Assembly: GCA_045660605.1 (NCBI GenBank)
Contig: JAZREC010000007.1
Span: 1 to 26,834 of the forward strand
Length of the DNA: 26,834 nt
DNA from: Clostridia bacterium
GTDB lineage: Bacteria > Bacillota > Clostridia > UMGS1810
Direction: 5' to 3'
A program made the position numbers and the translations under genes. Positions 7,059-25,829 of the stretch are shown here, piece after piece (within the stretch, counting starts at the first letter, position 1; each line of letters starts with the position of its first letter). Below the pieces are notes generated by a model. It made no database searches. It was given only the letters and a program-made list of their open reading frames with translations, and was not told the DNA's origin.

Positions 7059-7335
7059 TAAGCACACGGAAGTCGAACCCCGTATGCCTTAAATTTTTAA
7101 AATTTGCACACTTTTCATTTGTCGTCCTCGCAAGGCGTCAGCCTTCCTTCGTCCTCCGCATAAAAACTATACTAAATTTTATGCATTTAAGGTCGAAGAG
7201 TTTTAAGATAGCCAATCTTGTGTCAAGACAAGTAAAATCTCGCAGGGAATACTTTCGTATTTTCAAGAGATTTTATGCGGGATTGACTAAAATTGTCATC
7301 TTAAAACCATACTGGGTTCAACTCCCGTGTGCTTA
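7059..7335. mobile_element. 277-bp MITE-like structured element, copy 1 (between potC and potD)
   Basis: Terminal inverted repeats TAAGCACACGGRAGTYGAACCC, TA at both ends, ungapped ~90% match to 23174-23450, no credible ORF. Confidence 0.8.
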
Positions 7336-10064: not shown

Positions 10065-10604
10065 TCAAAAATTTGGTGGTGTAGACACCCAAAGCACCGT
10101 GGCAGTTGTCTTGCCGTTATTGACAATGTGATGTGCCTGATTGGTCTTGTAATAAAAGCTCTCATGCTTTTTGACACGGTATTTATCGCTTCCAAGGTGG
10201 AGTGTAATATTTCCCGACAGAACAAAGCCGAATTCCTCGCCCTCATGCGGGTCATCAAGATACGATGTACCCCCCGGATGAAGCGTAATTATGATAGGCT
10301 CCATTGTATGCTTCTGGGAATTTGGGACTATCCAGTTGACAATGCTTTTTTCTTCTTTGTTTTCCTTAATAAAAACATCTTCCTTGGTAAATACAACATT
10401 GTTGTCCTGAGCATCGTTAAAAAAGTCCTTGAGGTCTGTGCCGAGGCACTGCAAAAGGTCTGACAGGGTGGAGATAGACGGAGATGCAAGATCACGCTCA
10501 ATCTGTGATATAAATCCCTTTGACAGCTCGCAACGGTCTGCAAGCTCCTCTTGAGTAAGATTGTTTTTTATGCGGAGTCTCTTGAGTTTACTTCCGATTT
10601 CCAT
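10065..10604 (-). CDS. XRE-family HTH plus cupin transcriptional regulator (PuuR-like)
   Basis: IGSKLKRLR...LTQEELADRCELSKGFISQIERDLASPSISTL HTH and HEGEEFGFVLSG cupin; start taken as ATG 10604. Confidence 0.9.
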   Translation of the reverse strand: MEIGSKLKRLRIKNNLTQEELADRCELSKGFISQIERDLASPSISTLSDLLQCLGTDLKDFFNDAQDNNVVFTKEDVFIKENKEEKSIVNWIVPNSQKHTMEPIIITLHPGGTSYLDDPHEGEEFGFVLSGNITLHLGSDKYRVKKHESFYYKTNQAHHIVNNGKTTATVLWVSTPPNF

Positions 10605-10773: not shown

Positions 10774-10802
10774 ATTATAATATTATTTTATATCCATGTC
10801 AA
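10774..10802 (-). promoter_or_regulatory. Sigma-A promoter of the regulator-potABCD operon
   Basis: Minus strand consensus TTGACA (10802-10797), 17 nt, TATAAT (10779-10774). Confidence 0.85.
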
Positions 10803-10855
10803 TAGGCAAATAGAAAAAGAGTAGTTTTTTTGTAATTTTATGTTGAATATAAATA

Positions 10856-11382
10856 ATTTTGTAAAGGGTGAAATTCATGATGAGCTTCACCAGAGGATAT
10901 TCAATCGTTGCTAAGTGCGTATTTCAAGAACATCTGTCTAAAATCTGCACAAAAACGAAGCCGCGCTGACAAGCTCACTCAGAGCTTGGCAGCGCTAAAA
11001 TTACCGAAACCGCAGCGGGAATTGATTTTCGGCAATTTTGCTCCGTTTTTTGCTTGATTTCAGGCATATGTTTTGTCTTGAAATCCGCAAGACGCAACTT
11101 ATTGAATATCCTTACGATATGCGATATCCCGCATAACACGCCTTATGAATTTTGGGGCAAAACCTACGGCACAAATCAAAGTAAAAATTCCGTAAAATCG
11201 ATGGAAATCCATTACTGCTGCTGTCCGTCGATTTTAGCGATGCCTCGCTCTGAGTGAGCGTGTCATCGCGACGGGATTTTTACACAGATTTGGGTCGGAG
11301 GTTCCCAAAATTCATACTAAGTGTTTGGCGGGATATCGCATATCGTACGAAGCTATCGTATTGAATTCACCCTCTGCAAAAT
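10856..11382. repeat. ~527-bp non-coding doubly palindromic element (terminal stem plus two homologous Y-shaped arms)
   Basis: Terminal IR ATTTTGYARAGGGTGAA; arm 1 closed by AGGATATTCAAT/ATTGAATATCCT; arm 2 closed by a perfect 20-bp IR (11113-11132 / 11328-11347); arm 2 reverse complement aligns to arm 1. Confidence 0.85.
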
Positions 11383-11389
11383 CGCTCAT

Positions 11390-11442
11390 AAAACAAAGCA
11401 AGCCAAACCATAACAAAAGCTATGATTTGGCTCTTTTTGTTT
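11390..11442 (-). terminator. Intrinsic terminator after iorB
   Basis: AGCCAAACCATA...TATGATTTGGCT stem (11401-11432) flanked by A-rich and T-rich tracts. Confidence 0.8.
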
Positions 11443-23173: not shown

Positions 23174-23450
23174 TAAGCACACGGAAGCCGAACCCCGCAT
23201 GCCTTAAATACATAAAATTTGCACACTTTTCATTTGTCGTCCTCGCAAGGCGTCAGCCTTCCTTCGTCCTCCGCATAAAAATCGCACTAAATTTTATGCA
23301 TTTAAGGTCGAAGAGTTTTAAGATTGTCAATTTTGTGGCAAGACAAATAAAATCTTGCAGGGAATACGCTTGTATTTTCAAAAGATTTTATGCAGTATTG
23401 ACCAAAATTGTCATCTTAAAACCATACTGGGTTTGAGTTTCGTGTGCTTA
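23174..23450. mobile_element. 277-bp MITE-like structured element, copy 2 (between the rpsO stop and its terminator)
   Basis: Same length and ends as 7059-7335; about 27 mismatches by manual count. Confidence 0.8.
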
Positions 23451-25545: not shown

Positions 25546-25604
25546 TTATAATCAGTCCTTTCGTTTAATAATTCTGTTAATTTAAAATCAGTAAAAAGTT
25601 TTGG

Positions 25605-25799
25605 CGATATGCAATCTTCGATTGCTCGATATTTTTACCAAAGCAAAATCGATATGTTTGCCCTTCGGTCAAACTCGATATGATATAAATCTCGTTGCCT
25701 TTAGGCAACATATCGAGCCATCAGGCATATCGAGTGCGAAGCACATATCGAAAATCTTGCAAGAGATTTATATCGACTATTTCAAGCTTCGCTTGAAAT
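25605..25799. repeat. CGATAT x4 / ATATCG x4 hairpin ladder in the metY upstream region
   Basis: CGATAT at 25605, 25627, 25650 and 25676; ATATCG at 25710, 25727, 25745 and 25770; short hairpins between them. Confidence 0.85.
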
Positions 25800-25800
25800 T

Positions 25801-25829
25801 ATTCTATCACAGCCAAACACAAGTGTCAA
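25801..25829 (-). promoter_or_regulatory. Sigma-A promoter for metY overlapping the metF stop codon
   Basis: TTGACA (25829-25824), 17 nt, TGn-TAGAAT (25806-25801). Confidence 0.75.

Follow-up and report, generated by a model that had tools for sequence, protein, structure and literature searches.

Bacterial MITEs, exemplified by the Correia elements of Neisseria and RUP of pneumococcus, are small, non-coding elements that are dispersed through intergenic DNA and bounded by TA-ended terminal inverted repeats; they fold into long hairpins, occur as internal-deletion variants and are patchily distributed in related species (PMC3184786). Another class, the REPINs mobilized by RAYTs, comprises two inverted imperfect palindromes that probably function in folded, single-stranded form and whose REP units of ~20-25 nt pair mutually (PMC3116915, PMC3337134). 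Compensatory changes are common in REPINs (PMC3116915). Mobile elements also carry structured RNAs, such as the omega/reRNAs of IscB and TnpB (for instance Rfam HEARO) and the bridge RNA of IS110, in which a covarying module lies near the transposon end with its sense strand running outward to the flank. Parvovirus ITRs and Streptomyces telomeres form T- or Y-shaped terminal hairpins with flip and flop forms, and the ssoA-type single-strand origins of rolling-circle replicons combine a strand-specific ssDNA fold with an RSB site and a CS-6 motif (TAGCGT) in a loop.

The repeat described here shares features with these systems. One copy lies in the window, that is, the whole stretch of 26,834 nt that was analyzed (contig JAZREC010000007.1 of a Clostridia bacterium). 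It is most like a TA-ended foldback MITE, and is REPIN-like in having two inverted palindromic units kept by compensatory change. Compared with the bacterial MITEs, however, it is 4-5 times larger, and its interior holds two self-folding inverted modules where a MITE forms one hairpin from both ends; its modules are better conserved than its termini and covary in a strand-specific manner, and neither a parent IS nor a target duplication was found for it. It resembles parvovirus ITRs and Streptomyces telomeres in having a closing stem with two arms, a well-folding 3' part on each strand and occurrence in both orientations, but it is a chromosomal interspersed repeat and not a replicon end, and no Rep or terminal protein is known for it. 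Our preferred reading, to which we assign a probability of roughly 0.45, is that the region represents a copy of a MITE-like mobile repeat, non-autonomous and of the foldback type, with a strand-selected Y-shaped module that acts most likely as RNA.

The first-pass annotation had outlined a 527-bp intergenic element at 10856-11382. Its features are all present at the positions it gave, and the strings it quoted for arm 1 and for the reverse complement of arm 2 are correct when read against the sequence. The true ends, at ~10848 and ~11390, come from aligning 19 full copies, flanks included, and replace the earlier pair; the window copy measures 543 bp and the family consensus 557 bp (Table 1). 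What the repeat finder reports as a 17-nt, 88% terminal inverted repeat (10856-10872 / 11366-11382) becomes, after this correction, an imperfect repeat of ~25 nt with TA at both outer ends. Between these ends lie the two arms, whose closing stems were also called by the repeat finder: that of arm 1 (10894-10905 / 11101-11112) is paired at 12 of 12 positions, and that of arm 2 (11113-11156 / 11304-11347) extends over 44 nt at 86%. A 14-nt inter-arm linker is missing from the window copy and present in all 18 other full copies aligned. The absence of an own promoter and of a credible ORF, both part of the original description, held up: a promoter scan found no promoter-like site inside the element, and the ORFs within it are all shorter than 70 aa and vary among copies by 1-nt indels. 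Its placement between the iorB terminator and the pot promoter was likewise borne out.

Table 1. Features of the window copy and of its immediate surroundings
Feature	Position	Strand	Basis
Whole repeat element	10848-11390		Alignment of 19 full copies with flanks; copies in own genome and relatives
Left terminal inverted repeat, ~25 nt, starts TA	10848-10872	+	Pairs with 11366-11390; mean pairwise identity among copies 0.65 (arms 0.90)
Right terminal inverted repeat, ends TA	11366-11390	-	Repeat finder and family alignment
Arm 1, Y-shaped module, better-folding (sense) strand -	10894-11112	-	Folding energy, wobble variants, paired changes
Arm 1 apex (three-way junction core)	10929-11071	-	Covariance model R1, 151.8 bits on -; 42.8 bits on opposite strand
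Hairpin A of arm 1	10963-10995	-	Inverted repeat 10963-10976 / 10982-10995, 93%; loop 10977-10981 = UGAGU on -
Hairpin B of arm 1, conserved large loop UCAAUUUCCGCUGC	10997-11039	-	Sequence; loop kept between arms and across genera, stem covaries
Arm 2, inverted homologue of arm 1, sense strand +	11113-11347	+	Folding energy, G.T variants, paired changes
Arm 2 apex	11162-11303	+	Covariance model R1, 157.7 bits on +; 41.2 bits on -
Hairpin B of arm 2	11193-11236	+	Inverted repeat 11193-11205 / 11224-11236, 92%
Hairpin A of arm 2, loop TGAGT at 11251-11255	11237-11269	+	Sequence
Intrinsic terminator of iorB, just outside element	11400-11433	-	Terminator at 11433-11400
Consensus sigma-70 promoter of downstream regulator/pot genes, outside element	10774-10802	-	TTGACA-17-TATAAT, 12/12 matches

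The 1.49-Mb MAG to which the window belongs contains six full copies by BLASTN (83-86% identity) together with shorter ones, giving ~9 copies or deletion variants plus fragments. More than 25 copies are present in the closest congener (G010) and a dozen or so in each of two further genomes (G003 and G008), while a fifth MAG species carries the element at 91% identity, which bears out the initial impression of a multi-copy, selfish-looking intergenic element. BLASTN detects it in 4 of the 67 genomes of the family, with no match in 10 other members of the genus or in other genera of the family. When 185,579 species were scanned for exact 18-mers, the element came up only in MAGs named "Clostridia bacterium", and the 18-mer matches beyond the five species are due to chance. 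The isolate labels TS and YK of element-bearing MAGs presumably denote sheep and yak; runs containing the window come from animal-gut metagenomes, bovine and sheep among them. A metagenome scan with a 21-nt core returned two matches, both attributable to chance.

Internal-deletion variants range from 205 to 442 bp, and all keep both terminal repeats of ~25 nt, which define the unit of this small, non-coding, dispersed element. Further TIR-like sites in four genomes proved to be more deletion variants only, and at one locus of the own genome (C209) a two-TIR footprint is all that remains of the element. As regards gene context, 13 copies lie between tandem genes, three between convergent genes and one between divergent genes, often no more than 30 nt from a stop codon. 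Nearly all ends read TA...TA and nothing longer was seen by way of target duplication; none of five candidates in the own genome provided a clean empty site, as they contained diverged intergenic DNA or a two-TIR footprint. Since no autonomous partner, clean empty site or readable target duplication was found, mobility is read from the distribution of the copies. Exact-protein look-ups of flanking genes for strain variants found nothing on record. In G008, the copy in the C125 intergenic region (L028, contig C52) interrupts a terminator-like hairpin, sitting in its loop (ACGCAG ... CTGCGT, then a T-run) just past a stop codon. In the own genome, what looks by eye like the start of an RNase P RNA (GAGGAAAGTCCGAGC, C141 ~10190-10230) lies ~90 nt from the C141 copy; the corresponding G008 site is without the element.

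Searches for a named family or a partner gene delimit what the element could be. Rfam 15 gave no match at gathering score across the whole window, and relaxed searches, with E cut-offs of 10 for the window copy and 0.5 for distant copies, returned chance-level matches only; the element had not been recognized as a named family at the outset, and Rfam names none at any level tried. No gene inside or beside any copy was found to qualify as an autonomous partner with the same ends, and no parent IS sharing the ends was found in the genomes searched. With MAG completeness at 85-96% and IS elements prone to poor assembly, such results mean that a partner was not found, not that it is absent. PF13358 (DDE_3, IS630-type) has no match in four element-carrying genomes. 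PF01797 (Y1/RAYT) has none in the own genome (G000) or G008, both rich in copies, and its matches in G010 and G003 lie away from any copy of the element. TnpB was found in none of four carriers, and the TnpB zinc-ribbon family turned up only in a genome without the element. As a candidate parent, DDE_Tnp_1 was rejected, being present in some carriers without the element ends and not found in G008; a 15/16 TIR-like match within a truncated transposase ORF at C129 was judged to be chance.

On these grounds the element departs from several known classes. In none of G000, G008, G010 and G003 was a single-copy Y1 gene flanked by the repeat found, and the units of ~230 nt (220-235 nt) fold on themselves and lie within terminal inverted repeats, in contrast to the short, mutually pairing REP palindromes; because no RAYT was found for it, the element falls outside the definition of a REPIN. 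The suggestion that it is a REPIN/BIME with an HUH/RAYT link is therefore not sustained, its terminal repeats being MITE-like. Nor does it resemble an IS200/IS605-derived PATE, as it has terminal repeats and arms with opposite sense strands, besides the missing TnpB and, in G000 and G008, Y1 matches. Unlike the omega/reRNA and bridge RNA loci, its copies have no nuclease or recombinase gene beside them, and its stems are longer and more palindromic. The first-pass annotation had left open a selfish element or a large structured ncRNA; a selfish structured repeat is supported, and an ncRNA is possible for the ~140-230-nt module but not for the whole 527 bp.

The fold itself is exceptionally stable against shuffled sequence. 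Between its corrected ends, the window copy folds to -250.4 kcal/mol on the + strand (z = -17.6) and to -244.3 kcal/mol on the - strand (z = -16.7), and none of 100 shuffles was as good on either strand. Aligned by BLASTN to its own reverse complement, the element matches at 67% identity across 377 nt (E 3.5e-20), and the two halves are therefore inverted homologues beyond chance, as first proposed; similarity at chance level, the tested contrary outcome, was not observed. Each arm pairs with itself at 86-100%, versus 73% for arm-to-arm pairing. RNAalifold predicted 155 pairs on 19 full copies, 19 of them with changes at both sides. Covariation within the arms was assessed on 36 distinct arm-1 and 33 distinct arm-2 sequences, a two-sided pair being one with two Watson-Crick types that differ at both positions and the control being partner columns slid by 1-3. 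By this measure, 19 pairs changed on both sides in arm 1 (2-6 when slid) and 22 in arm 2 (3-6 when slid), in agreement with the claim that the Y-shaped fold has been kept through compensatory changes. Likewise, pairing cells, whether Watson-Crick or wobble on either strand, amount to 92% in arm 1 and 93% in arm 2, versus ~50% for both when slid. Hairpin A of arm 2 exists among the copies with two wholly different stems, CGCTC/GAGCG and CGACA/TGTCG, around one TGAGT loop.

The two arms are selected on opposite strands. In arm 1, folding favors the - strand by 13.9 kcal/mol in 18 of 19 copies, and in arm 2 it favors the + strand by 16.8 kcal/mol in all 19. Wobble-type mismatches, counted on a strand-neutral set of helix positions, show the same mirror pattern when shared by two or more copies: arm 1 has 18 pairs with A.C on the + strand (which is G.U on the - strand) and 5 with G.T, whereas arm 2 has 17 with G.T and 3 with A.C. 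Among singletons, by contrast, the counts are 13 A.C and 7 G.T in arm 1 and 9 A.C and 11 G.T in arm 2. Biased shared variants beside balanced singletons are suggestive, given small numbers and related copies, of selection on the copies that propagated. Polymorphic pairs pass through a wobble on the sense strand (UA-UG-CG); for instance, one arm-2 pair is TA in 12 sequences, TG in 12 and CG in 6, and one arm-1 pair is AT in 14, AC in 8 and GC in 10. Folding energy and wobble variants thus agree with the earlier view of one motif copy per strand, the good copy being arm 1 on the - strand and arm 2 on the + strand. From the opposite biases it follows that the selected strand of each arm runs 5' to 3' from the center outward. 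Because the arms are inverted homologues, both strands read alike, the poorer arm first and then the good one.

The module extends well beyond the element. A covariance model (R1; 142 positions, 45 pairs) was built from an alignment, A2, of the apices of both arms in sense orientation (37 sequences). Nearly all complete arms of the element copies reach 108-163 bits on the sense strand, versus ~35-50 bits on the opposite one. Beyond the reach of BLASTN, the model finds full-length matches in eight further genomes of the same family (G066, G054, G055, G051, G063, G046, G023 and G009) and matches in two genomes of a second family (G142 and G034); these distant matches reach 44-64 bits, with per-genome E values of 1e-6 to 1e-11, and four more genomes have weaker ones. 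Counted by genus, full-length modules occur in 5 of the family's 13, besides the second family, and within the family 16 genomes are positive and 51 negative. In most of these additional genomes, a single module lies in intergenic repeats of 250-540 bp present in 2 to 9 or more copies; one such repeat has 36-nt terminal repeats and several break contigs, while G009 has an inverted module pair arranged as in the window element. Genes beside the distant modules are housekeeping ones, such as Spo0A, DUF1385, TPM and amidohydrolase, and scans of the adjoining sequence gave no consistent promoter. Judged by these model matches, the Y-module is older and wider than the 557-bp element, its diverged members being mostly single modules.

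Across 26 distinct module sequences, 42 of the 45 pairs are changed at both sides, 94.4% of cells are paired (36-47% when slid) and the covariation score is 0.80 versus ~0.1, with 0 of 500 shuffles reaching 0.80; as this deep alignment was fitted to the R1 structure, the pair counts are somewhat inflated. Several unpaired parts are conserved as well, namely the large loop UCAAUUUCCGCUGC, the pentaloop UGAGU of hairpin A, which is the same across genera, the junction UUUUAGCG and the GCGG that follows hairpin A. When the strand of the distant members is set by these loops, G.U again outnumbers A.C (21 versus 6).

Two side observations concern individual distant genomes. In G063, a module-bearing repeat 94-99% identical between copies ends at least nine contigs at the same point (for example C175:1-213 and C233:3100-3313). 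This suggests a recently amplified family in that genome, and near-identical palindromic repeats are the best explanation for the contig breaks. Two genomes of different genera, G023 and G046 (L143:860-930 and L147:505-1055, - strand), share a GC-rich hairpin with GGGGGUGUCGGGGGUGC and then a U-rich run, 3' of the module on the sense strand; they are terminator-like by eye, although a simple terminator scan did not call them.

In the preferred reading, the element is a gene-less mobile repeat with ~25-nt TA-ended terminal inverted repeats, and its interior is an inverted duplication of a ~230-nt Y-shaped module, which would be a conserved nucleic acid structure under selection in its folded, single-stranded form. 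A trans-acting enzyme would move it. Because the copies lie mainly just downstream of genes and lack a promoter, they would be transcribed by read-through from upstream genes, and the resulting RNA might protect or process a 3' end, or bind a protein through its conserved loops. As to the level at which the fold acts, we put RNA at about even odds, consider ssDNA a substantial but lesser prospect, and hold it improbable that neither applies. RNA is favored by the tolerance of G.U with avoidance of A.C, by the conserved loops, by the sites just after genes and by the hairpin and U-run in G023 and G046. Contigs derived from the element occur in three animal-gut metatranscriptome runs and are about as deep as neighboring genes, although these data are unstranded, low in depth, drawn mostly from other copies and possibly derived from DNA. 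Against this reading, functional RNAs do not usually have stems of ~100 near-perfect pairs, which are characteristic of DNA palindromes, and the window copy, lying between a terminator and a promoter, may hardly be transcribed.

In a second explanation, the same mobile repeat carries a Y-module selected as folded ssDNA, whether as the substrate of an HUH/Y1-type transposase, as the target of a tyrosine recombinase that acts on folded DNA or as a priming site comparable to a single-strand origin. At each end of the element, the fold would form from the 3' half of a strand, in the manner of a giant REPIN or a parvovirus ITR. We regard this as unlikely, though not by a wide measure, as the element does behave like a mobile element, its stems are long and near-perfect, a promoter is absent, and the sense strands of its arms mirror each other like the two ends of a DNA element. 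The confinement of the wobble bias to shared variants is also as expected if selection acts on propagating rather than resident copies. The junction carries a TAGCG motif, and its sequence TTTTAGCG resembles the CS-6 TAGCGT of ssoA origins; no Rep gene or plasmid context is present. However, G.T is only weakly stabilizing in DNA, so that the strong avoidance of A.C fits RNA better, and in most other genomes searched the module occurs singly and not at two ends. Furthermore, IS200/IS605-type elements use one-strand hairpins without terminal inverted repeats, and the partner searches described above found no Y1/RAYT in G000 or G008, none beside copies in G010 or G003, and no TnpB in four carriers.

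A third explanation, which we consider quite improbable, denies the fold any function. The element would be a decaying palindromic repeat whose stems are kept complementary by templated quasi-palindrome self-correction and by gene conversion among copies, and its strand bias would stem from mutational asymmetry or from inheritance of one ancestral arm. The many deletion derivatives, including the footprint at C209, are what unstable palindromes would produce, and no partner gene was found. Moreover, orthologous copies in G000 and G010 are 85-94% identical while their flanks are 89-94% identical; the copies are no better conserved than the flanks and therefore offer no evidence of selection on resident copies. 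Orthologous copies are also not each other's nearest relatives, the copy tree being star-like. Self-correction cannot, however, give conserved unpaired loops together with fully replaced stems (42 of 45 pairs) across genera and two families, nor does it explain why distant members whose strand is set by their loops show the same bias. As copies lie in both orientations, mutation biases of replication or transcription should cancel.

The orientation of the element was compared between the own genome and its closest congener, G010, at ~10 common loci with flanks ~90% identical. Four loci (C125, C240, C197 and C193) have the same orientation and four to six (C7, C16, C5, C76, and perhaps C141 and C268) the opposite one, so that roughly every second copy orthologous between these two species is inverted in place. 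At C16, both flank junctions align to the base and the entire element, including its terminal repeats, is reversed; at the window locus of G010, the pot-side junction is identical and arm 2 faces that flank. Mean pairwise identity among copies is 0.50-0.65 in the terminal repeats and 0.88-0.90 in the arms, while orthologous terminal repeats are 94% identical. In appearance, the terminal repeats are mosaics of the left-type and right-type sequences, and repeated flipping would explain their low identity among copies. Nearest-neighbor analysis was tried as a way to tell inversion from re-insertion and did not discriminate because the family is star-like. Copies at the C125 locus in G003 and G008 were considered as a case of concerted evolution, which was rejected as they are independent insertions at different positions. 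In the G010 orthologue of the window locus (L064:722-1735), both terminal repeats and arm 2 are kept, and the place of arm 1 is taken by an ORF of 152 aa that has a lipoprotein-like signal and matches no Pfam family.

An invertible regulatory switch of the inverton family, in which an invertase flips the element at its terminal repeats and changes the expression of neighboring genes, is very improbable: despite the flanking inverted repeats, their mosaic appearance and the two orientations at orthologous loci of two species with conserved junctions, promoter scans found no promoter inside, the nearly two-fold symmetric interior means that flipping changes little, the inversion is seen between species, and passive, RecA-independent inversion is known to occur between inverted repeats that lie close together. 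For the preferred reading, that of a MITE-like repeat with an RNA-level fold, the mirrored duplication would place one sense module in a transcript whichever way the element lies, a design that would suit an element able to insert in either direction and to flip where it lies.

Structured bacterial repeats are usually dismissed as palindromic junk. The Y-module has covariation as strong as that of accepted ncRNA classes, conserved loops, a sense strand and an occurrence in at least two Clostridia families, with no entry in Rfam. One could go further and suppose that it represents a new class of structured RNA on Clostridia mobile repeats, with the loops UCAAUUUCCGCUGC and UGAGU and the junction UUUUAGCG as hallmarks, that partners a trans-acting protein as guide, recruiting RNA or processing signal, and that the mirrored dimer is an adaptation giving a sense copy on either strand; we regard this extended version as doubtful. 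Since mobile-element RNAs, namely omega and bridge RNAs, have already given programmable enzymes, a partner protein would be worth finding. Handles on propagation and on the choice between RNA and ssDNA are offered by the mirrored wobble bias, by singletons that are balanced where shared variants are biased, and by how often the element is inverted in place. Practical value is modest for now and lies in the covariance model, which can annotate repeats that break assemblies of ruminant-gut Clostridia MAGs.

Other repeats were noticed in the same genomes. The window itself holds two copies (7059-7335 and 23174-23450) of a second, 277-bp repeat family with TA-flanked terminal repeats starting TAAGCACACGG, of which the own genome has at least nine copies at 88-96% identity. 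A "CGATAT/ATATCG hairpin ladder" in the metY leader (window 25546-25829) is a dispersed repeat with at least 13 further copies on other contigs (74-87%), and is therefore probably another MITE-like element and not a dedicated leader. A further 277-bp element (C168:2370-2646 of the own genome; L041:1570-1845) has the ends TAAGCAGTCGC... and ...GCAACTGCTTA; in G010 it is inserted in arm 1 of the C125-locus copy, with ~5 nt repeated at the junction. Terminal repeats starting TAAG are found in this last family, in the 7059-7335 family and in the G003 and G008 copies of the 557-bp element.
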